A DNA stretch of 64,000 nt, taken from NCBI GenBank assembly GCA_000004985.1, contig GG738909.1; one strand, 5' to 3'. The translations under genes were made by a program, and so were the position numbers. The notes below the pieces were generated by a model. It was not told the DNA's origin. It made no database searches and saw nothing but the letters and a program-made list of their open reading frames with translations. Source of the DNA: Naegleria gruberi. Its lineage: Eukaryota. Of this stretch, positions 21,841 through 50,035 are shown piece after piece; position 1 is the first letter of the stretch; every line of letters starts with the position of its first letter.

Positions 21841-22570
21841 ATGGTTAAAGGTTTACTTTTGACTCTTTTAGCAGTCCTTGTTGTCATTGTTGCTGTTGTA
21901 CATGCACAACAATCAACATGTGGTTCCTTGTCAAACAATTCTCGTTACATTAACCTTGTCGGTTCTTGGAGAGAAACTTCGAGTGGTAAGATTTGGACCA
22001 GTGTTCAACAGGGAAATCATTTCACTTGGACACAACAAGGTACCAATAGAAAGGCAACTGGTTTTGTTGGTAAGTAAACTATAGTTTCGAATGAACATGT
22101 CATTTGTGTTTGTGAAAATAGTTGCTCCATGTCAAATTTCTACTGCAGTTGCATATATTACATTTGATGGAAGTACTCATTGGAAAGTTAGTATTTCCTC
22201 CGATGGAGAAATTATTCGTGGACCTTCAGAAACTTTTACTAGAGTGAATGCTACTCAACCAGTTGCTCAACCAAGAGGTCAATATAAGGAAAAGTCAGGA
22301 AAGATTTGGACTGTCACTGGCTCTACTTGTCATGCTTTTACTTTGCGTAATCAAGGTAAGTTTCGAATAGTTTCAGATAATTAAAAATTCTTAATTGAAA
22401 CAGATGGAAGAACTGCTGAAGGTTTCTACTCAAATGATGAATCTACTGGATTGACTACTATCTATATTACATTCCATGATCCTACTGGAGATACTATTTT
22501 GAGATCAACTACTCCTAATATGGATATTTGGCAATTATCGAATGGTGATGTTTTCAGAAGAGTTGTTTAA
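21841..22570 (+). CDS. Small secreted protein with two internal repeats. Model is join(21841..22069,22122..22355,22404..22570).
   Basis: Signal peptide MVKGLLLTLLAVLVVIVAVVHA. Two GTAAGT...AG introns of 52 and 48 nt have consistent phase. The repeat SGKIWT..G occurs twice. Confidence 0.6.
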
Positions 22571-24550: not shown

Positions 24551-26872
24551 TTATTCAATTGTAGTCTTCATGGTGCTTTCCATAAATTTCAAGTAGATTT
24601 GAGTTGTAATCTCAGTCAATTCATCAAATATATCTTCAAAAGTTGGTCTCTCTTTTGGATCAATGTGTGTACATTTCATTCCCAATAAATGAATCTTTTG
24701 AGCTTGTTCTTGAGTGAGGAAATTGAACCTCTCCACCAATTGAACTACTGAAATAAAACTTCCAAAAACATCTGCCATATTGGCAGGTCTATATCCAGAA
24801 ATGAGTGTGTGCATTGTGACTCCAAAACTGAAAATATCCAAAGCTCTAAACACAAACACTGTGTCTTGTTGCTTATTTCTCAATTCTGGTGCCATGTAAT
24901 ATAATGTGCCAGCAGTGGTGCAGGAATAGGTTTCAGGTTTGTCCACTGTGAGAGAAACATCAAAATCTGACAATTTGACATTATCAATAATCTCAACTCC
25001 ATCAATTCTCATCTTTTTCACCAAAATATTATTTGGTTTAATGTCATAATGAATCACATTCTTGGAATGTAAATATTTCATTGTATCTGAAACCTTGACA
25101 AGGGAGAATAATATTTGAACAAGTTCAATAATTGTTGGTTCAGTTATTGAAAATGAAGATAATGAATCATCCATCTTTTCCATGAATAAATGTTCGATTC
25201 CATCTTGATTATAGTGATGTAACAATTTTACAACACCATCATGTTCACAAATTCCATTCATAATTTCAATCTCACTCGTTCCAATATTATTAGAAATTTT
25301 CTCTGCAACAGGAACATTATTCATCAACACTGAATATACAGCTCCATTTGCCCCATTTCCAAGATATGTTCTATTGGCTCTGTTAATGACAGCCCCTTCA
25401 ATGACTGTGGCTCTATTTAAAGTGATAGTTGAAAGAGTTTCTCTTTTCTTCAATCTGCAAGATAAAATATATGACATATTATATGAAAAATATTCTCCAA
25501 GAGACTTGAACTCATCCAATTTCCTATTCAGCATTAAATCAGCTTGTGGAGCCAACATATATTTGAGAATGCTATTATTTGTGATGATTTCTGATTGATT
25601 GTCCACAAGTTTTGGCAAAGTGTAAATGTTAATGAAATATCTGAATGGCTCAATCTCCCCTTCTGACAATAATTCAACCAATGATTCTGCTTCAACACCT
25701 GAACTGAGTAATATTCTGACATCATGGTGATTTCTCTAATTGTAGATGCGAGTTTTTATAAGTATTGGAAATTTTTACAAATAACAAACCTTAATTAGGT
25801 GATGAGCAATTAATAATCTCATAATTTTTGTAAAATTATTAGTTTTGGCAATTTCAAATGGTGTTTCTCCCTTTCTTGGTGTGAATATTGATTTTTTAGC
25901 AAACAAACTTACACACTAATAACCATAAATGGTATTCCAAATAATTTACACTCAAAAACTTACTGACTATTCAAAAAGTTAGTTGGTTATCTTTAATAAA
26001 TACATACACACTGTGAAATGGTTGAGAAATGATCGATTACGAAATCAACTTACATTCTTTTAATTGTTAATGCTTCATTGTGGAAATGAAATTAAACTTA
26101 CATGCTTTAAAATAATTAATTTGAAAAGTAATTGAAATACTTACACACTATAAAAACGTCAGTAAACTCCAATAGATCACTATCAACTTACACACTAATC
26201 AAATTATTCCTCTGCAAAACAACTAATAAGCATACTTACTCCCTAAAATCTCTTATTCGAAACTGTATATGCTAAACTTTACTTACTCCCTAAAACCATT
26301 CAAAATCTCAAATCTACAAATCTACTTACTCCATTCTTATAATCAACCAATGGCATACTCTTCAGTAAATATTTCACAACTTTAACTTGTCCATATTTGC
26401 AAGCAATGTACAACAAAGTTCTCGCTGGAGGATAGTTCTTATTCTTCTCTGGAATTAAAACATCAAGAAGTGATGGTAAATCTTTCATTCGACTCAATTC
26501 TTTCACATTTCCTTGTTTCACCCAATAGGCAGCCAATAATGCATTGTACATTTGTGGAAACAATCGAATAGTTGTTAGTGCTGGACTCCATTGGGATGGC
26601 TGCACCAATAGTTGGAAAATAGGATGAGATGGTTGTCGGAAAGGATAATTGGAAGGAAAAGAAAAAGTGAAAACAAATGGCTCCTCCTTTCAAATTCCAA
26701 TAATTCATTCATCATTGATCAATAAATTGATAAATCTATTCGAAATAAACTCACATCAACAATTTTAAAAGTTACTGTCCATTCCGAAAGTTCATTGTCA
26801 TTCTTAGGTTCGACAGTAAAGCCAGGATGTGTCAGTTGTTTAATATCTCGCAATTCTCTCTGTACTCTCTTC
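24551..26872 (-). CDS. UBC-like (non-catalytic) N-terminal domain, ankyrin repeats and a Ser/Thr protein kinase, about 582 aa. Model is complement(join(24551..25735,25790..25870,26330..26686,26750..26872)).
   Basis: Kinase motifs: LGNGANGAVY, VAEK, HYDIKPNNILV, DFD and YMAPE. Upstream exons encode MLKRVQRELRDI...SEWTVTFKIVD and ...QWSPALTT (an E2-like fold lacking the catalytic Cys) plus ankyrin-like repeats. Introns of 54, 459 and 63 nt have consistent phase. Single-gene linkage is inferred. Confidence 0.5.
25871..26329 (-). repeat. Intronic array of about 9-10 tandem units of roughly 45-50 bp. Each unit begins with a consensus 5' splice site (GTAAGT, read on the minus strand) and ends in AG.
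   Basis: On the plus strand, ACTTAC recurs every 45-50 nt (25908, 25958, 26049, 26098, 26140, 26187, 26234, 26282, 26324). The units are separated by 3-4 nt spacers (GGAG, TGT, TCA, CAT, AAT). Confidence 0.5.
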
Positions 26873-27786
26873 AACATTCTCACAAATTTTTTTTGATTTA
26901 TTTTGTTTGATTGGTGAATATTAATAGAAAGGAAAGAAACTGTATCAATTTTGATCTACCAATTGAACTAGCGAAACACATCTATTTAAACGAAGAGAAT
27001 TGTTAACTTTTCAGCAGCAACAACTTTATATTCAATCAAAAAGCAATAAAAAAAATAAAGAAACACTCGAGCAAAACCAACACGTGAAAGATGTCATTCA
27101 TTCTTTGTGATTAATCTTGTTGGTGGTACAAAACTTTTTGATGAGTTTCTTAATCAAGTTGACAAAGAGAAACATTCTCCAACAGATTTAGTTTCTCTAT
27201 TTGCATTGACTATTAATATTAATGTCAGTACTTTGGTTGATAAGATTCCCTCCATTACTCCAATTGACTTTCAACAGTAACATCACCACTTAATTCAAAC
27301 CTTACCAAATCAAAACAGATTTGTTAGGAATAATGGAGATTTATTGCTAACAGAAATTTTCCTGAAACTAGTGGACCATTACAACGAGAATGATTGGAAT
27401 TGTAGATTGGACCGAATGAATGATTTTTTCGACCAGAAATTGAAAGATCAACATGTCAAGATAGGGTTTTCTTTCGATGAAGCTCACCTATTATTCAAAC
27501 ATGCCCAACAAAAGGTGTAAGTCAATGGCCAACTAAAGGGGGGTCTCTTCCATGCTGTTTATGAACAAAATCGACAATTTAACAATCCTGTTTTTCTTGG
27601 CTCAACATTTAACATATCAGATGCCAATCTTGATGTCAGTCGAGAAGGAAGACAATTGGTTAGACGTGTTATTGGAACTCTTCAACCATGGCTGTTGCCA
27701 GGAGTTAACACAGCATTGACTCACTTGTTTCTGGTTCACCTCAAAACGTAACCATTTTACATAGAGAATTATTACAAAAATCATAT

Positions 27787-30048: not shown

Positions 30049-30224
30049 CGTCGATACACTTTGAAATATTTGTTTTTGTGTTTTGATGGTGCCCCTGTTT
30101 ATATTAACTGCGAGATGATTGTTTGTACGATGCTACAAGCTTACTAATATCTCATAAATCTGCTACCGTATTGAACGTTTACGGTTGTGATACAGTATTT
30201 GAATACAAAATACAATCTAACATG

Positions 30225-31714
30225 TGCAATAGTCTCACAATAAATAGAAAACTTGCCATACAATTGTGTAACATTGATTTATTTTGTTATTTACAAGATA
30301 TTGTTTAGATTTGTTTCATGATCCTTAAATCCAGCTATATCATGATTGACTGGTGCAATTAAAATATCTCAGTAAAATCTATTTCACAATTCATTCTCTC
30401 AGACACTACACAACAAATGTGGAGGGAGAAATTATGATTGATGAATACTTCTCTGATGATAGTTGTTAAAATTATTCTAAACTAATATTAATTTTGAGAA
30501 GGAGTGGCAACTTGTTGCTTTTCCAACAATTTTCTTTCCTTTCTCTCTTGCTTTTGAGCTTGTTTTTCCAATTTTCTTTGAGCTTTGATTATTTGCTTTT
30601 CAAGTTTCTTTTCCATTTTCCAAGCATGCTTTTGTTCCTTCTTTTGGAGTTTCAACAAGAGCTTTTCATCAACAGTTGGTGTGACAATATCAGCATTGTT
30701 GGAAACTGGTTCAGTTGATACTTGTTGAACTGGTGGTACAGTAACAATTACTGGTTCAACAATAGGTACGTTAATTGGAACAGTTGGTTCACTATAAGTT
30801 GTGGTAGTTGAAACAGTTTCTGGTTGAGTAGAAGTATTTCCTTGTTGCTTTCTTTGCTTCTTCAATGCAATCTTTTCAAGCTTGTATTGAGCTTTGATCA
30901 ACTTCTTTTCCAATTTAAATGCTTTCTTTTCTTCCTTCTTTTCAAGTTTGAGTTTAAGTCTTTCTTCCTTGTTTGGAGATGACTTAATAGTAGATGGAAC
31001 ATTTGAGTCAATGCTAACATTGACAGGATGGAATGACTTTCTCAAAGATTTCATTTCAAATTTTAGAGTCATGATTTGTTCCTTCTTCATCTTAATTTCA
31101 TCTTTCAATAATTCAATTTGTTGCTTCTTTTCGGAAAGACTTTGAGATTGTTCTTCAGTCAATTGAAGTTTGACCTTTCTTTCTTTCTTTTCCTTTCTTT
31201 CCTTCTTTTCATGATTCAATTTCTTCTTCATTACTCTGAAAAGAATTGGTTTATCTTGTGGAATTTCTTGAATTAATTTCATCATTTCAGAAAAATCATT
31301 TTCATTATTAATTATATAAATTGTTTTTCTCTTCTCAGAAGATGGAACAATAGCCTTGATCTTGAAAGTGGATAATAACACTTCATCAGAAGAAGTAGCA
31401 GATGGTAAATCTTGAACAAATTCTCTAACAGATTCATTCAAGCCTCCGAAATTAATTAATTGGAAAACCTTTTCAATACTTTCTTCCTTGTTCTTTCTCA
31501 TGATTAATTTACCAGTGAGAGTATTATTATTATTATTATTATTATTAGTACACATTTTCTTATCAATTGTTTTAGATTATTTAAATAATTGTTTGATTTG
31601 TTTTTTTTGTTGGTTGAAAAATGAAAATAGAAAGGGTGGGAAATTTTATTTCATTCCACAACAGCAAAGTTCACCATCTCTCCAAAAATAGTTTTTTTGT
31701 AAGGTTACAACAAC
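30225..31714 (-). repeat. Copy B of the roughly 1.5-kb segmental duplication, inverted relative to copy A at 427-1905
   Basis: Its reverse complement aligns with 427-1905, including the UTR-like flanks. Confidence 0.8.
30488..31555 (-). CDS. Lys/Glu-rich coiled-coil protein, duplicated gene copy B (355 aa)
   Basis: Near-identical to 581..1642. It has 8 Asn codons rather than 6 and a few substitutions (for example ADIVTPTVDEK vs DEIVTPTVDAR). Confidence 0.6.
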   Translation of the reverse strand: MCTNNNNNNNNTLTGKLIMRKNKEESIEKVFQLINFGGLNESVREFVQDLPSATSSDEVLLSTFKIKAIVPSSEKRKTIYIINNENDFSEMMKLIQEIPQDKPILFRVMKKKLNHEKKERKEKKERKVKLQLTEEQSQSLSEKKQQIELLKDEIKMKKEQIMTLKFEMKSLRKSFHPVNVSIDSNVPSTIKSSPNKEERLKLKLEKKEEKKAFKLEKKLIKAQYKLEKIALKKQRKQQGNTSTQPETVSTTTTYSEPTVPINVPIVEPVIVTVPPVQQVSTEPVSNNADIVTPTVDEKLLLKLQKKEQKHAWKMEKKLEKQIIKAQRKLEKQAQKQERKERKLLEKQQVATPSQN

Positions 31715-31786
31715 TTAATTAACGCCAATCTTGCTTCACCTTTAATAAAAACAAGAACAAATTTCCAATACTCAACTCTTTCAACT

Positions 31787-33321
31787 TTACAATGAATATT
31801 TACAAGGAACAGATTTGCAAATTTGTGCTAATTTAGAAAGTATGGTTGAGCAAAAAATTGGCTCTTCATAATAATCTTCCAATTGTTCTGCCCATTTACT
31901 TGCTTCCTCCTCATTTGTAAATTCAACTTTTTCAGTGCAATATTCAATCAAATCATTTAGTCCATGTTCGTGAGCTTTCTTCATGACGTTTAAGAGATTT
32001 CGATTGGGAATTTCCAAATGTTCCTTTCCGTAAATGTATTCAATAATGAAAAGAGTTTCGTATGGAAAGATTTCACTAGAATTCCAAGTACCATTCTCAC
32101 TTGAGAGAAATGCTTCAAAAAATAAGCTTTTTGACATGAGAATTGTTTTGTGACATTTCACGGTGAATGAAGTGAGGCCATCTTCTGATGTAATTGAAAT
32201 GTCAATGTCAGAATCACATTCTTTGGTGAATAATTCCCATAGTGGATTAGAAATGTCCTCTTTTTCTGTAATATCCAATTCAGTTATTGAGTTATTGGAA
32301 ACTAGAAGATTGTGTAAATTATTCAAATAAATTCCACATTCGAAATTTTCAATATAATACGCAACTTTTTGTTTTGCCTTTTCAGTAAAACCAAAACTTT
32401 CCAAATATCCCAAATTAACACCTTCGAATAAAATTTTCTTCCAATAAGTCAACTCATTCTCATCAGCTTTATCCAATAGAAAGAGTAATGCAAGTTTCCT
32501 CTCCAAAATAATCGACTCCTCCTCATCCAAATCATCAGGCAACACTTCAATACTATCATACATTAGCACATCCACAATAACTTGCAATTCTTCTCTTTCC
32601 AATTTTGACAATTGACTCAACAATTTCTCATTCAGAAAGACATTTTCAAAAAATGTTGGAAACATTACTTTCAATAAGGGAATAAAGGCAGTAATTTGAT
32701 TATTCGAATCATGATTGAACTTTTTCAATGAAATTCCAGATGTATAGTTTAGTATTTCGTAATGTTTTCTTTCGGATAGTTCATCATCATGAGGATCGAA
32801 ACTAGGATGCAGAGAAATGAGTTTGATGATCAATGGATTGTCGGCTATTCCAATTGGATACAAATAATCCCACTATTGATTATTGAGCTTCTTTGAAAGA
32901 ATCGAATACTTACTGTGTACTATTAATTGATGATAAATATTATTCGAAACAAAAACTTACTGGCTAATATCATGTTTTCCAATTTCCGATTTTTTAAAAT
33001 TTACTTACAACTACAACCTAGATTACAATTTACCAATTAATTAAATTTTCACAATTAAAATTATTCGAAACTTACACCAACATTAACATTCACATTCGGA
33101 ACACTTGCCAAAACTTTTGCCATTTCAAAATCATCCGAAACACAAGCATGCATAAATAATGGACAATAGGAAAAGTATGAATTTTCACAGGTGAAGGAAC
33201 GAATTTCTTTGTTAATTATTTCTTTGGAAAGTTTAGTTTTGAGCCATCTGAGTCCTTCTACATTCTTCTCACTAATAAAATTGACGCCTTTTAGTAAAAT
33301 CTCATCAAAGTTTGTTGACAT
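31787..33321 (-). CDS. Ankyrin-repeat / BTB(POZ)-domain protein. Model is complement(join(31787..32872,33076..33321)).
   Basis: Ankyrin-like first exon (MSTNFDEILLKGVNF...LFMHACVSDDFEMAKVL). The BTB-like region is FTVKCHKTILMSKSLFFEAFLSS. The intervening 203 nt carries a GTAAGT-repeat array, which is assumed to be one intron. Phase 0 at both junctions. Confidence 0.5.
32873..33075 (-). repeat. Second intronic array of tandem splice-donor-like units (4 x GTAAGT...AG of about 40-50 nt)
   Basis: On the plus strand, ACTTAC occurs at ~32910, 32958, 33010 and 33070. The units share the TTCGAATAA motif with the 25871-26329 array. Confidence 0.4.
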
Positions 33322-34415: not shown

Positions 34416-34533
34416 GGCTACGGCCATATCACGATGAATGCACCTCATCCCGTCCGATTTGAGAAGTTAAGCATCGTCGAGCCACATCAGTACTGAGGTT
34501 GGAGACAACTTGGGAACCTGTGGTGCTGTAGTC
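34416..34533 (+). rRNA. 5S ribosomal RNA gene, copy 2
   Basis: 118/118 identical to copy 1, followed by a TTTTTT terminator. Confidence 0.85.
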
Positions 34534-35128
34534 TTTTTTACTTTAACAGGTTTTTCAACATTAGCTGATTTTATGTTACGGTAGTCTTTTTGTCAACAAT
34601 GAAGTATTTGGTTATACCTAATTAGATGTTTTTGATGGTGATGATGCTGAAAGTCGCTTTTGAGTTTGAACTTTGTTAAACTCTTGAATGGAACCAGGCT
34701 TGAAATTTATTGAAATTAATCATTTCAACAGTTTGCATTTGAAATTTGCTTTGAATTATAATCAAGATTCTTTAATTTGTTGCTCCACAACTTGTCCATA
34801 TAATGAAATATCATGATTTGGTTGATATCAATATTTCAAGGAGATTGAGTGGCTCTTTTATAACATTCAATGATTTAAGGTTGGGAAATTTAAAACTGAA
34901 TTAATTCAGTGAACAAAGATAACGTTTGATGTCATCCTCGTTAACAAAACAAATTACAATAATAAATAATAATTGCACCACGTTACCCTTATTACTCTTC
35001 TTCCTCAAGGAGTTTTTCTATCCAATCGCGTAGAATATAGTCGGCATTCGGATACGATCGGTTTTAAGTCCCGCTCTAAGCAAGAACGTTCTATCATCAA
35101 AAAACTTCAATTTTTAAATTTAAAAAAA

Positions 35129-43219: not shown

Positions 43220-44704
43220 TCACTCAATAAAACCATAATTTTTCTTTTTCAGTTGCTTTTTCATACGTTTCAGATACTTGTTTCCATTGTCTATTCCATT
43301 ATCATATACATTTAAATGTTTTAATTTCTTCATTTTGGATAGGTATTTCACTCCTGAATCTTCAATAAAATTCTCAGAAATATCCAGACGTGTTAAGTGT
43401 TTCAATTTAGATAAGGATTTAGCACCTTCAGTTTCAATACTATTTCTATGAACATCAAGTTCAGTCAATTTTTCCAGCTTGCTTATAGATTCAGCTCCTT
43501 CATTTCCAATTGAAATTTCAGAAATCCAAAGTTTAATCAATTGATTCAATCCACTTATTAGTTTTGCCCCCTCATCTCCTAAATTATTAGCTGATATATC
43601 TAAAAAAGTTAAATTTGTCATTTCACTAATTGATTTGGTGCCATCTATTCCTATTAAAGTTGAGTGCATATAAAGTGTTTTCAATTGTTTCATTTCACTT
43701 ATTACCTTTGCACCAGCGTCACCAATCCAGTTGTCACCAATATTCAGACTGATCAGTTGTTTCAAAGAGGTTATTGATTGGACTCCATCAACTGAAACAA
43801 TTTGTATTGCATGAGCTGACAAATTAGTTAATTGTTTCAATTCACATATAAACTTAATTCCTTCCTCATCAATTCCATTTAATCCAACACTCAGATCAGT
43901 CAAATTTTTCATTTGACTAATACATTTGCATCCTTCTGTCCTTATTTCGTTATGATCTATGTCAAGTTTTGTTAGTTGACTTAGTTCTATCAAAGATTTT
44001 ACACCACTATCATCAATACCATTTTCACTTATTTCAAGGCTTGTCAATTGTTTCATTCCAATCATTGATTCAATACCCAAGTTTGTGATCTTACACTTAC
44101 TAATATTTAGAATAGTCAGTTTTTCAAGTTTTGATAAATATTCAACAGCCTTATAACCAATATCATTATAGCCAATACTCAATTCCGTAAGATTAATCAA
44201 ATTACCAATTGATTGAGTTGCTTCCGAACTAATCACATTACTTATCAGATCAAGTTTCTTCAATTGGTCCATCTTACTAATAATTTTAGCACCATCATCA
44301 TCAATTAAATAGGAATCAAATACCAGAGTTTGCAAATTCTTAAACTTCCCAAATACCTTTAAACTTTCATTACATATTTTCGATTCCTCCGTAAAGTGCA
44401 CTCCACAAATACATTCCAAAAATTGGCTCCTTTCCATTAATTTAATTCTTTCCTCATCAATGGGCTGTTTAAATTTCAAATAAATTTCCGAACGTTCCTT
44501 GATTACTCTCATCCATTGTCTTGATATACGAGTGTAATTTTTCAAAACAAACCAATTTGAATATTTACCTCCTATAAGAAAGGAAATAATTTCAAAACAA
44601 ATGTCATCGGGAAATTCTTTAATTTCATGCTGATGACTGATTATTACTTGGTTATTCTCTTCTGTGAAGTTGGGATCAATTCCTGTTTCTCGTAATCGTT
44701 TCAT
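43220..44704 (-). CDS. Leucine-rich-repeat protein (RNI/RanGAP-like LRRs), about 495 aa
   Basis: Many 28-aa LRRs (LxxLxxLxLxxNxIgdeGak). The start is inferred at the internal Met (MKRLRETG). The longer track ORF to 44911 runs antisense through tRNA-Gln and is not credible as coding. Confidence 0.55.
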   Translation of the reverse strand: MKRLRETGIDPNFTEENNQVIISHQHEIKEFPDDICFEIISFLIGGKYSNWFVLKNYTRISRQWMRVIKERSEIYLKFKQPIDEERIKLMERSQFLECICGVHFTEESKICNESLKVFGKFKNLQTLVFDSYLIDDDGAKIISKMDQLKKLDLISNVISSEATQSIGNLINLTELSIGYNDIGYKAVEYLSKLEKLTILNISKCKITNLGIESMIGMKQLTSLEISENGIDDSGVKSLIELSQLTKLDIDHNEIRTEGCKCISQMKNLTDLSVGLNGIDEEGIKFICELKQLTNLSAHAIQIVSVDGVQSITSLKQLISLNIGDNWIGDAGAKVISEMKQLKTLYMHSTLIGIDGTKSISEMTNLTFLDISANNLGDEGAKLISGLNQLIKLWISEISIGNEGAESISKLEKLTELDVHRNSIETEGAKSLSKLKHLTRLDISENFIEDSGVKYLSKMKKLKHLNVYDNGIDNGNKYLKRMKKQLKKKNYGFIE

Positions 44705-44810
44705 TTTTTTTATTGTAAAAACAAATCGACTCTTTCGCAATAGCAGCGAGCCAAAACCAAGCCTAACCTTAATTGATGTAAGATTTACTGCCTTTTTACA
44801 ATAATGTGCT

Positions 44811-44881
44811 CGTCTCGTGGTGTAATGGTAGCATAGTGGACTTTGAATCCATTGACGGAGGTTCGATTCCTCCCGAGACGG
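44811..44881 (+). tRNA. tRNA-Gln (anticodon TTG)
   Basis: Acceptor CGTCTCG/CGAGACG, anticodon loop CTTTGAA, T-arm GGAGGTTCGATTCCTCC. Confidence 0.8.
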
Positions 44882-45237
44882 TAAACGTGGCGAGCCATAC
44901 GAATTTTGCATGTGGACGATAACTATTTTTTTACTTTCCTGGTATAGCCATTTCTTGAAATACCATTAGAATCGAAAATATTAATTGGGTTTTTTGAAAT
45001 TGTTCAGATATTTATGTAATGTACAAAAGGAATTCAAAGAAGAGGAATATTAACTTTCTATTGGAATTCTAGTGATATTTTTGAGACTTTGCATATTTCT
45101 ATTGGGAATACTATTTTGGACGCTTTTCAGTTTAACAATATCTTTAGAAATTCGTTCCTATTGCGATAAAGGAATATTCTTTATATTCATTGTATTAAGG
45201 GAAAATTGTTCATATTTCACATTGTAAGTAACTGAAT

Positions 45238-45355
45238 GGCTACGGCCATATCACGATGAATGCACCTCATCCCGTCCGATTTGAGAAGTTAAGCATCGTC
45301 GAGCCACATCAGTACTGAGGTTGGAGACAACTTGGGAACCTGTGGTGCTCTAGTC
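45238..45355 (+). rRNA. 5S ribosomal RNA gene, copy 3
   Basis: One substitution relative to copies 1 and 2 (GCTCTAGTC vs GCTGTAGTC near the 3' end), followed by a T-run. Confidence 0.85.
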
Positions 45356-45505
45356 TTTTTATATTCATTTTGACTTTTGTGAAATTAGTCTTGGTTTTTA
45401 TTCATTTAATACTTGAATTAATACTATTGATAGCTATGTAAAAAATATTTTAAAATAATTTCCTGAAACATTCATGAATAGTGTATATTTACTTTGAATA
45501 TAATG

Positions 45506-49552: not shown

Positions 49553-49768
49553 TGTTGTGTGAAATATATTATTGTTTGGTTGTTTTTTTTTGTTGTGAAA
49601 TACAGCTATCTGATCGTGTGTTAATAATAGCTTAATGCAAAATATTTTCACCCACTTTTGCTTGAAGCAAGTTTTTTTGCGACGGATGGTATCTTGCTAC
49701 AAATATCTTTGCTTCAAAACCACCCGAAAATATTCAATCATATGTTGTTTAAATTTTATTAACCAGAT

Positions 49769-49859
49769 GGTGAGTTGGTCGAGTGGTCTAAGACGACACG
49801 TTAAGGTATGCCTAATACCGTGTTCCGCAAGGGCGTGGGTTCAAATCCCACACTCATCA
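49769..49859 (+). tRNA. tRNA-Leu (class II, anticodon AAG) with a probable 11-nt intron at 49807-49817
   Basis: Acceptor GGTGAGT/ACTCATC, D-arm GTCGAGTGGTCTAAGAC, anticodon stem ACACG/CGTGT enclosing TTAAGG plus insert, long variable arm, T-arm GTGGGTTCAAATCCCAC. Confidence 0.7.
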
Positions 49860-50035
49860 ATTTTTTATCTCATCTCAAGCTGATCAATTTGAAAAGTGAA
49901 GTATTCAGAATATTGTATTTTATAGAGCAACTGAACTGAATGAAGAATAATGATATTAGTGTTCGTAGGTGATTGGTTTCAAAGATTAAGAAAGGTGAAA
50001 TATTCCAAAATGAAAAAACTTAAATACTTTTTACT

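Follow-up and report, generated by a model that had tools for sequence, protein, structure and literature searches.

Introduction

The micro-exon genes (MEGs) of schistosomes, reportedly described by DeMarco et al. in 2010, encode secreted proteins, and most of their coding sequence consists of symmetric micro-exons of 6 to 36 nucleotides (nt) that are separated by long introns. Here we analyze an array, which we call ladder 1, on the minus strand of a 64,000-nt stretch of DNA from Naegleria gruberi (assembly GCA_000004985.1, contig GG738909.1; this whole stretch is referred to below as the window). Ladder 1 interrupts a gene for an ankyrin repeat protein kinase, NAEGRDRAFT_73958 (gene 1), and its sequence leads us to favor, with a probability of about two in three, the reading that it consists of ten separate minimum-size U2-type (GT-AG) introns and nine translated micro-exons of a single codon each.

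Isolated exons of this size have been described in other organisms. A 1-nt exon within a 139-nt intronic region of Fusarium CYP621A was confirmed by transcript reads, and the same paper cites a 1-nt exon in Arabidopsis APC11 (PMC12940212); since the Fusarium exon was validated, exons as small as the ladder spacers can be spliced, and by a spliceosome that deals with short introns. Drosophila homothorax has a 3-nt exon (PMC7392893), and RPS24 has three consecutive micro-exons of 3, 18, and 22 bp (PMC12207440). Zero-nucleotide ratchet points are found in the very long introns of Drosophila Ubx and other genes (bioRxiv 10.1101/006163, PMC6110456). In fungal complex intervening sequences, or stwintrons, a single intron position holds several U2 introns that are excised consecutively, and their proposed origin is by new splice sites or a duplicated donor within an existing intron (PMC7138796, PMC9024468). 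Candidate mechanisms by which introns multiply locally are their tandem duplication (PMC4974935) and the spread of introner elements (PMC9860276).

Results

Ladder 1 divides without remainder into ten units and nine 3-nt spacers

Ladder 1 extends over 459 nt of the minus strand (26329-25871) and splits into 10 units of the lengths given in Table 1, with nothing left over. It is flanked in phase 0 on both sides: exon 2 ends with GAT TAT AAG AAT GGA (DYKNG; last bases GATTATAAGAATGGA), while exon 3 starts with GGA GAA ACA CCA (GETP, within GETPFEIAK; first bases GGAGAAACACCATTTGAAATTGCC). The donor hexamer is GTAAGT in nine of the 10 units and GTATGT in the other, so that 59 of the 60 hexamer positions agree with GTAAGT, and the acceptor is AG in all 10. 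Between the units lie nine spacers of exactly 3 nt (GGA GGA TGT TGT CAT AAT TGT TCA TGT), and the protein stretch across these codons would read DYKNGGGCCHNCSCGETPFEIAK; the codon-free junction would be 26330^25870 (AATGGA/GGAGAAACA). For 9 of the 10 units, retention would shift the frame or bring in a stop codon. The earlier note on this DNA had seen about 10 GTAAGT...AG modules between the DYKNG and GETPFEIAK exons, and the parse bears this out, flanks included. Its spacers of 3 to 4 nt shrink to 3 nt throughout, the GGAG that it listed having taken in the first base of the following donor; TTTTAG, which it gave for all units, ends just two of them (the others end in ATTAG, TATAG, AAAG, CAG, or AATAG); and TTCGAATAA, which it treated as the mark of a repeated unit, is present in unit 2 only.

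An arrangement of this kind is not expected by chance. Outside both arrays of the window (ladder 1 and ladder 2, described below), GTAAGT occurs 25 times in 128 kb (both strands), which gives 0.09 expected per 459 nt compared with the nine found in ladder 1 (Poisson P ~1e-15). A three-unit pattern matched five times in the window and not once in 100 dinucleotide-preserving shuffles. As a null comparison, 596 Gb of prokaryote contigs were scanned with a slightly stricter three-unit pattern (TAG acceptors), which yielded three non-repetitive three-donor matches and none longer, and a scan of viral contigs with the ladder pattern returned only one tandem repeat and one probable chance match. An assembly artefact is excluded because a contig of a strain 1-2% diverged, found in metagenome ERZ929261 (contig L001), holds the last 4.5 units of ladder 1 without indels. 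The divergence between the window and L001 is 1.2-2.4% in every category of site, too little to tell constrained from neutral positions.

The public model of gene 1 already contains part of the ladder

The window has a G+C content of 33.5%, its cytochrome c1 is 86% identical to that of Naegleria lovaniensis, and four of its open reading frames (ORFs) are identical to N. gruberi NAEGRDRAFT_73977, 73972, 73960, and 81671, which lie on one 250-kb scaffold of strain NEG-M. We modeled gene 1 with four conventional exons, encoding an E2/UEV-like N-terminus, two ankyrin repeats, and a protein kinase. Ladder 1 sits in the β-hairpin loop between the two ankyrin repeats, in phase 0, and its micro-exon codons would be only 9 of the ~590 codons of the gene. 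Pfam UQ_con matches residues 4-61 with an E value of 7.5e-6, slightly under the curated cut-off. The E2-like domain is without the segment that normally holds the catalytic cysteine, and for this reason it resembles a UEV. An exact look-up of the full-length readings of gene 1 and of the second ladder gene gave no match in the protein collection searched, and no protein derived from a transcript of gene 1 turned up in it.

In the public model of NAEGRDRAFT_73958 (474 aa), translation begins within exon 2 and yields ...DYKNG-G-C-H-N-S-C-RNHHD.... The model thus lacks the E2-like exon 1 and the beginning of exon 2, and it skips the 81-nt exon 3 with the second ankyrin repeat. Its sequence is accounted for only if six of the nine 3-nt spacers are exons and exon 3 is skipped. 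Because this model uses six of the nine spacers, single-codon exons are already present, in part and silently, in the public N. gruberi annotation.

The units match the short introns of the window

For comparison, we inferred 15 ordinary introns by linking long ORFs over GT...AG gaps within the window. They measure 41, 41, 41, 46, 48, 48, 52, 53, 54, 54, 68, 83, 85, 103, and 115 nt, and the ladder 1 units (40-48 nt) fall at the short end of this range. The ordinary donors are GTAAGT (10), GTATGT (2), GTGAGT (2), and GTTTGT (1). The pentamers TAATT, TTAAT, AATTA, and ATTAA are about 4-fold enriched in the interiors of ordinary introns and of ladder units alike, and TTCGAATA, which mostly stands directly behind the donor, is intron-specific, with 5 of its 15 occurrences in the window falling inside the 1.5 kb of intron sequence, where 0.18 are expected (P 1.4e-6). 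By donor, acceptor, length, and composition, each unit of ladder 1 thus has the sequence characteristics of a short U2-type GT-AG intron. The motif yTnAy at positions -8 to -30 is found in 60% of the units, in 60% of the ordinary introns, and in 66% of shuffled units, the sequence being AT-rich. RNA folding of ladder 1 revealed no unusual structure (z = +0.49), and Rfam gave no match above chance over 24-34 kb of the window.

Two further features of these introns were observed. The motif TTTCGAATA is strongly enriched in sense-strand introns (5 observed, 0.18 expected, P 1.4e-6) and usually stands right after the donor (GTAAGTTTCGAATA), with example sites at 22356 (+), 22070 (+), 26754 (-), 33075 (-), 32960 (-), and 26261 (-); it may be an extended 5' splice-site signal or an intronic signal of Naegleria. 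The base before the donor is G in none of the 14 ladder donors of N. gruberi (two ladders) and in 8 of the 15 ordinary introns. The absence of this G was rejected as a rule for ladders, as it is present in 3 of 7 ladder donors of Naegleria fowleri, and in N. gruberi it may be due to chance or be specific to the species.

The units share their junctions but not their interiors

If ladder 1 were an intronic minisatellite, formed by recent slippage or tandem duplication of the exon/intron boundary, its copies would need no individual function. Recurring junctions are what such an origin would leave: TTTTAG-GGA-GTAAGTA occurs twice (TTTTAGGGAGTAAGTA), ATTAG-TGT-GTAAGTT occurs twice (ATTAGTGTGTAAGTT), the recurrences span 15-16 nt, and GGA is also the last codon of exon 2 and the first codon of exon 3. 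Beyond the junctions, however, the units do not behave as copies. Every direct repeat in the ladder 1 region is centered on a junction; local alignment of the unit interiors gave a mean score of 11.4, compared with 12.2 for shuffled interiors; and beyond shuffled expectation no unit is similar to another unit or to any of the 15 ordinary introns. Tandem Repeats Finder reported no array in ladder 1, its sole report being an 8-nt micro-repeat at 26303-26325 within unit 1. Because the interiors match shuffles and no array is found, ladder 1 is not a recent tandem repeat, and the minisatellite explanation, which would also have to explain how a homologous ladder keeps its unit number between species with almost unalignable interiors (see below), is in our view very improbable. 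On this evidence the units are not copies of each other and hold only a trace of junction duplication. The "stuttered duplication" of the exon/intron boundary that the earlier note proposed accordingly stands for the junctions, two types of which occur twice with GGA at both exon edges, and fails for the interiors. Since the donors match GTAAGT so closely while the interiors show no similarity, the sequence implies that selection has acted on each donor of ladder 1.

Spacers of homologous ladders evolve like codons

A second ladder lies in the window on the minus strand at 33075-32873 and consists of four units in the ankyrin hairpin of an ankyrin-BTB gene (gene 2), again in phase 0, between ...VPNVNVNVG and WDYLYPIGIA... 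(at the DNA level ...AATGTTGGT upstream and TGGGATTATTTG downstream). Its spacers of 9, 3, and 6 nt are listed in Table 1. A sister strain (contig L176) retains the whole of ladder 2 with just two changes, GTAAGT to GTGAGT at donor 1 and GTT to GTC within the first spacer; the latter is the sole spacer change and is synonymous in frame. The survey for ladders in N. gruberi covered the 64-kb window.

Homologues of the ankyrin-BTB protein, found by a profile-free search, are present in N. fowleri (FDP41_012859) and N. lovaniensis; the two are mutual orthologues with the same neighbors (DCP2, a hairpin protein, and mTOR). At the same hairpin, the N. fowleri gene has seven units of 64, 166, 65, 55, 47, 51, and 61 nt (contig L178, 10214-10740) with six spacers, GAT GAA GGA TTG ATC TCG, flanked by AAGGGATTG and AATTCTCCT; its codon-free junction, AAGGGATTG/AATTCTCCT, would be AAGGGATTGAATTCTCCT. 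The N. lovaniensis gene has seven units of 93, 68, 59, 59, 49, 58, and 66 nt (contig L180, 2214-2683) with the six spacers GAT GAT GGA CTT ATC GTT. The flanking exons of the two genes are 74-79% identical at the DNA level, whereas the interiors are 37% identical and vary freely in length (166 versus 68 nt). Nevertheless, both genes keep the same unit count, all GT and AG sites, and each of the 3-nt spacings. The spacers translate to D-E-G-L-I-S in N. fowleri and D-D-G-L-I-V in N. lovaniensis, with four of six amino acids identical, and the leucine is kept despite two base changes (TTG versus CTT). Because amino acids are kept while the interiors fall to 37% identity, the spacers evolve like coding sequence and unlike intron. 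In ~106 kb of other Naegleria and Willaertia sequence from around unrelated or homologous genes (contigs L123, L124, L177, and L178), the ladder of the N. fowleri homologue was the sole further one.

Several side observations concern these homologues. Unit 2 of the N. fowleri ladder (L178, 10281-10446), the counterpart of the 68-nt unit of N. lovaniensis, is swollen to 166 nt by an AT-rich (TTATATTATTATTTAA)n microsatellite, and the Logan contig L179 breaks within this microsatellite. In another ankyrin-BTB homologue (P0268, 535 aa), an insert of 39 residues (STTVSGYHHQQRKKYCKVFTESKWSYNFTSRVYKDEQAK) separates GIDVNK from SPLQIACE; it resembles an insert that the N. lovaniensis model has in this position (see below) and is probably another ladder translated by mistake.

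A metagenome scan with the generic three-unit pattern matched at least 120 contigs. Among the matches listed, nearly all are (GTAA)n microsatellites or true 42-nt minisatellites, and only one, L009, is a real analogue (JGI contig Ga0207864_1037532, positions 1-1425; an unrelated, AT-rich eukaryote with 17% G+C). L009 has five mini-introns with the spacers AAA TGG AAT AGT, between ...GADVNAKN and TPLHFASENGH.... Its ankyrin repeat has 33 residues with the four codons and 29 without them, and K-W-N-S aligns ungapped to the hairpin residues of homologues, whereas a four-residue gap is needed when the codons are left out. Because the 33-residue repeat is incomplete without its four codons, the single-codon exons of L009 must, judging from this alignment, be translated. 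A search with the L009 protein found generic ankyrin proteins, the best with 64% identity over most of the query (67% over about half). Each 87-nt ankyrin-repeat exon of L009 apparently has its own ladder after it; the second ladder begins at the contig end with an almost identical first unit; and the upstream reading frame has no ATG before an in-frame TAA.

Over the five ladders counted (ladder 1, ladder 2, N. fowleri, N. lovaniensis, and L009), all 28 spacers are multiples of 3 and 26 of them are exactly 3 nt. This regularity, the codon-like evolution of the N. fowleri and N. lovaniensis spacers, and the L009 repeat lend support to the serial 3-nt micro-exons that the earlier note had offered as one of its options. 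Decoy splice sites, another of its options, do not account for an arrangement of AG, 3 nt, and GT that is conserved between species.

A proposed sequential splicing scheme and the points that weigh against it

We infer the splicing pattern of gene 1, and the level at which its micro-exons are included, from sequence. Each unit carries its own donor and acceptor, which would be recognized across the intron (intron definition), and the spliceosome would pair each donor with the nearest downstream acceptor, so that the units would be removed singly. The order of removal would presumably be sequential, as a 3-nt exon cannot seat both neighboring splice-site complexes together. No splice site would be re-formed, and because a ligated codon could not be removed later, some or all of the nine codons should end up in the mRNA. 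The mature transcript of gene 1 would gain as many as nine residues' worth of sequence, Gly Gly Cys Cys His Asn Cys Ser Cys (GGCCHNCSC), and the hairpin loop would be lengthened. Since every spacer is a multiple of 3, any mis-pairing of donor and acceptor would stay in frame.

Stepwise removal that leaves nothing behind, as in recursive (ratchet-point) splicing or in nested stwintrons, is the least probable of the explanations we weighed, even though the internal sites do resemble ratchet points in joining an acceptor to a strong GTAAGT donor. At all nine internal sites 3 nt separate AG from GT, the segments are only 40-48 nt long, and according to the sequence no excision re-forms a donor or acceptor able to remove a spacer. 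No unit interrupts the donor, branch site, or acceptor of another unit, which speaks against a stwintron. The recursive splice sites suggested in the earlier note therefore do not fit, as the acceptor and the next donor do not abut and each splice would leave a permanent codon.

Several points weigh against ten introns and nine translated codons. With the codons omitted, the Pfam Ank_2 profile runs straight over the junction of gene 1, 71 residues matching 72 profile positions, and in both N. gruberi genes the ankyrin repeat is near-canonical in length without the extra codons; the nine codons of gene 1 would for this reason be a loop insertion and no required part of the fold. A 3-nt exon has no room for the 3' splice-site complex and the U1 small nuclear ribonucleoprotein abreast, so that removal would have to be strictly sequential. 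The branch-point motif test did not separate the units from shuffled sequence. The coding-like conservation comes from a homologous gene family, gene 1 having been compared only with the strain 1-2% diverged. Finally, the automated annotation of N. fowleri has one 527-nt intron in place of the ladder, although this conflicts with the models of N. gruberi and N. lovaniensis, the latter of which has a 36-residue insert translated from intron sequence (pseudo-exons).

The near-canonical repeats and the N. fowleri annotation fit a composite 459-nt intron, in which the first donor would pair with the last acceptor and exon 3 would follow exon 2 without a break; at 459 nt, removal of the whole also preserves the frame. 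The internal GTAAGT and AG sites might then be bound but unproductive, as U1 landing sites that aid splicing or suppress premature polyadenylation within an intron rich in A and T, or might be used only in discarded intermediates. We regard a composite intron as unlikely. It would be about four times longer than the longest of the 15 ordinary introns, and it leaves unexplained why internal donors lie exactly 3 (or 6 or 9) nt past an AG in 28 of 28 cases, why spacer amino acids are conserved between N. fowleri and N. lovaniensis at 37% interior identity, and why L009 needs its codons.

Somewhat more doubtful than the composite intron is combinatorial splicing, in which donors would pair with variable acceptors to give in-frame isoforms with 0 to 9 extra loop residues that diversify or tune the ankyrin binding surface. 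In general, the ankyrin hairpin loop is regarded as contributing to the binding surface and as able to accept insertions. All 2^9 subsets of the codons are in frame, six of the nine appear in the public N. gruberi model, and the length of the ladder differs among paralogues (4, 7, and 10 units). Against this, the codons conserved between N. fowleri and N. lovaniensis are explained no less well by constitutive inclusion. A review of several species, N. gruberi included, in which intron retention was commoner than exon skipping in all species but one (PMC6142364), also counts against combinatorial splicing.

Taken together, the sequence comparisons favor serial single-codon micro-exons, at the odds given above for gene 1 and at higher odds for the family.

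Table 1. Coordinates of the exons, introns, ladder units, and proposed micro-exons of genes 1 and 2 in the window.
Feature	Position	Strand	Remarks
Gene 1 exon 1	26755..26877	-	ATG at 26877; start of E2/UEV-like domain
Gene 1 ordinary intron, 68 nt	26687..26754	-	GTGAGT...AAG; TTTCGAATA right after donor
Gene 1 exon 2	26330..26686	-	End ...LVDYKNG; first ankyrin repeat; Pfam Ank_2 residues 113-183
Ladder 1 unit 1, 40 nt	26290..26329	-	GTAAGT...TAG
Micro-exon 1, GGA (Gly)	26287..26289	-	
Ladder 1 unit 2, 44 nt	26243..26286	-	GTAAGT...TAG; includes TTTCGAATAAG
Micro-exon 2, GGA (Gly)	26240..26242	-	
Ladder 1 unit 3, 45 nt	26195..26239	-	GTAAGT...TAG
Micro-exon 3, TGT (Cys)	26192..26194	-	
Ladder 1 unit 4, 44 nt	26148..26191	-	GTAAGT...TAG
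Micro-exon 4, TGT (Cys)	26145..26147	-	
Ladder 1 unit 5, 40 nt	26105..26144	-	GTAAGT...AAG
Micro-exon 5, CAT (His)	26102..26104	-	In public model
Ladder 1 unit 6, 45 nt	26057..26101	-	GTAAGT...AAG
Micro-exon 6, AAT (Asn)	26054..26056	-	In public model
Ladder 1 unit 7, 43 nt	26011..26053	-	GTAAGT...CAG; kept in L001
Micro-exon 7, TGT (Cys)	26008..26010	-	
Ladder 1 unit 8, 41 nt	25967..26007	-	GTATGT...TAG; includes ACTAAC
Micro-exon 8, TCA (Ser)	25964..25966	-	In public model
Ladder 1 unit 9, 48 nt	25916..25963	-	GTAAGT...TAG; donor GTAGGT in strain L001
Micro-exon 9, TGT (Cys)	25913..25915	-	In public model
Ladder 1 unit 10, 42 nt	25871..25912	-	GTAAGT...AAG
Gene 1 exon 3, 81 nt	25790..25870	-	GETPFEIAKTNNFTKIMRLLIAHHLIK; second ankyrin repeat
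Gene 1 ordinary intron, 54 nt	25736..25789	-	GTTTGT...TAG
Gene 1 exon 4	24551..25735	-	Protein kinase domain (Pfam Pkinase E 4e-32); stop at 24551
Gene 2 exon 1, 82 codons	33076..33321	-	End ...VPNVNVNVG; ankyrin-like
Ladder 2 unit 1, 58 nt	33018..33075	-	GTAAGTTTCGAATA...TAG; donor GTGAGT in strain L176
Micro-exon GTTGTAGTT (Val-Val-Val)	33009..33017	-	Alternative internal AG would make a 2-nt spacer
Ladder 2 unit 2, 45 nt	32964..33008	-	
Micro-exon CCA (Pro)	32961..32963	-	
Ladder 2 unit 3, 41 nt	32920..32960	-	Includes TTTCGAATA
Micro-exon TACACA (Tyr-Thr)	32914..32919	-	
Ladder 2 unit 4, 41 nt	32873..32913	-	
Gene 2 last exon	31787..32872	-	Start WDYLYPIGIA...; BTB (Pfam BTB E 4.6e-7); stop at 31787

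Other features of the window

Three dispersed 5S rRNA genes lie on the plus strand at 1999-2117, 34416-34534, and 45238-45356 (Rfam 98-105 bits). Over 162 nt, part of which lies upstream, the copies share 94-96% identity, and a T run comes after each; they are scattered among protein genes with no tandem array. An inverted duplication of 1.5 kb (423-1914 and 30211-31716, 96-98% identical) carries a Lys/Glu-rich coiled-coil ORF (347-1642 on the plus strand and 30488-31555 on the minus strand). The sequence between the arms at ~21-34 kb of the window, with both ladders inside, is without an equivalent in the syntenic region of N. lovaniensis that surrounds cytochrome c1 (contig L123). A 93-nt tRNA-like gene, probably with an intron, is found at 49768-49860 (+), its anticodon not being named by ARAGORN. 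The gene for tRNA-Gln at 44810-44882 (+) lies within the 5' part of the minus-strand ORF 43220-44911, and the N-terminus of this ORF is for that reason probably non-coding.

Discussion

The likeliest origin of the ladders that we infer from their sequence is the repeated duplication of an "intron plus codon" module, or the breaking up of an older intron, in a loop where insertions are tolerated. Because junctions recur and GGA stands at both exon edges, ladder 1 may have grown by module duplication, after which the copies would have diverged over a long time while selection held splice signals and codons; an older intron split by new internal sites, a route suggested for complex introns of fungi (PMC7138796), would account equally well for the dissimilar interiors. 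The ladders may sit in an insertion-tolerant loop since either route adds residues.

If spliced as we propose, ladder 1 packs introns more densely, and strings together more single-codon exons, than any other case of which we found a record. The ladders probe the minimum distance from a 3' to a 5' splice site and whether the order of splicing must be sequential. Several of them occur at equivalent positions of the ankyrin hairpin and are conserved in two species, which makes them a tractable system for local intron multiplication, and they bear on why loop-coding positions are favored for intron gain. Their practical consequence concerns annotation. Three Naegleria genomes have three incompatible models at the ladders, namely six micro-exons with a skipped exon, a 527-nt intron, and a 36-residue insert. 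Standard spliced aligners would not be expected to place reads over a series of 3-nt exons, and for this reason ladder genes are probably mis-annotated wherever they are present.

A more far-reaching possibility, which we consider doubtful, is that the ladders are a heritable device by which one gene could give up to 2^9 in-frame loop variants of a signaling protein, and that they represent an undescribed mode of intron multiplication. Such a device would be a protist counterpart of the schistosome MEGs, growing by "intron plus codon" duplication or by intron fission at loop-coding positions in several eukaryote lineages.

How the ladders compare with known systems can be stated more directly. 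Full-text literature searches found no description of single-codon exon runs or of these genes. Ladder 1 was tested for the features that define minisatellites, ratchet points, stwintrons, introners, and MEGs, and these features are absent from it; the introner test covered the ladder 1 units and the 15 ordinary introns of the window. Duplicated introns and introners are recognizably similar in sequence, whereas the ladder units share junctions only. Stwintron units are nested, one splitting the splice signal of another, whereas the ladder units stand side by side and each is complete. Like ratchet points, the ladders place an acceptor beside a strong GTAAGT donor inside an apparent long intron that would be removed stepwise, but ratchet points leave no exon sequence, while each step of a ladder would leave 3 nt and the segments are 40-48 nt long.

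The MEGs share with the ladders runs of symmetric (multiple-of-3) micro-exons between conventional exons, any combination of which is in frame; unlike the MEGs, ladder 1 would have exons of 3 nt that add at most nine residues to one loop of an intracellular multidomain protein, and its introns are minimal. Isolated micro-exons resemble the ladders in being exons of 1 to 3 nt between ordinary GT-AG introns, in frame and often mis-modeled by annotation. They occur singly or at most in threes with flanking introns that are mostly ordinary or long, whereas the ladders would have nine, six, four, or three in a row between introns of about minimum length. We therefore class the ladders of Naegleria as ordinary spliceosomal introns and micro-exons in a previously undescribed arrangement.

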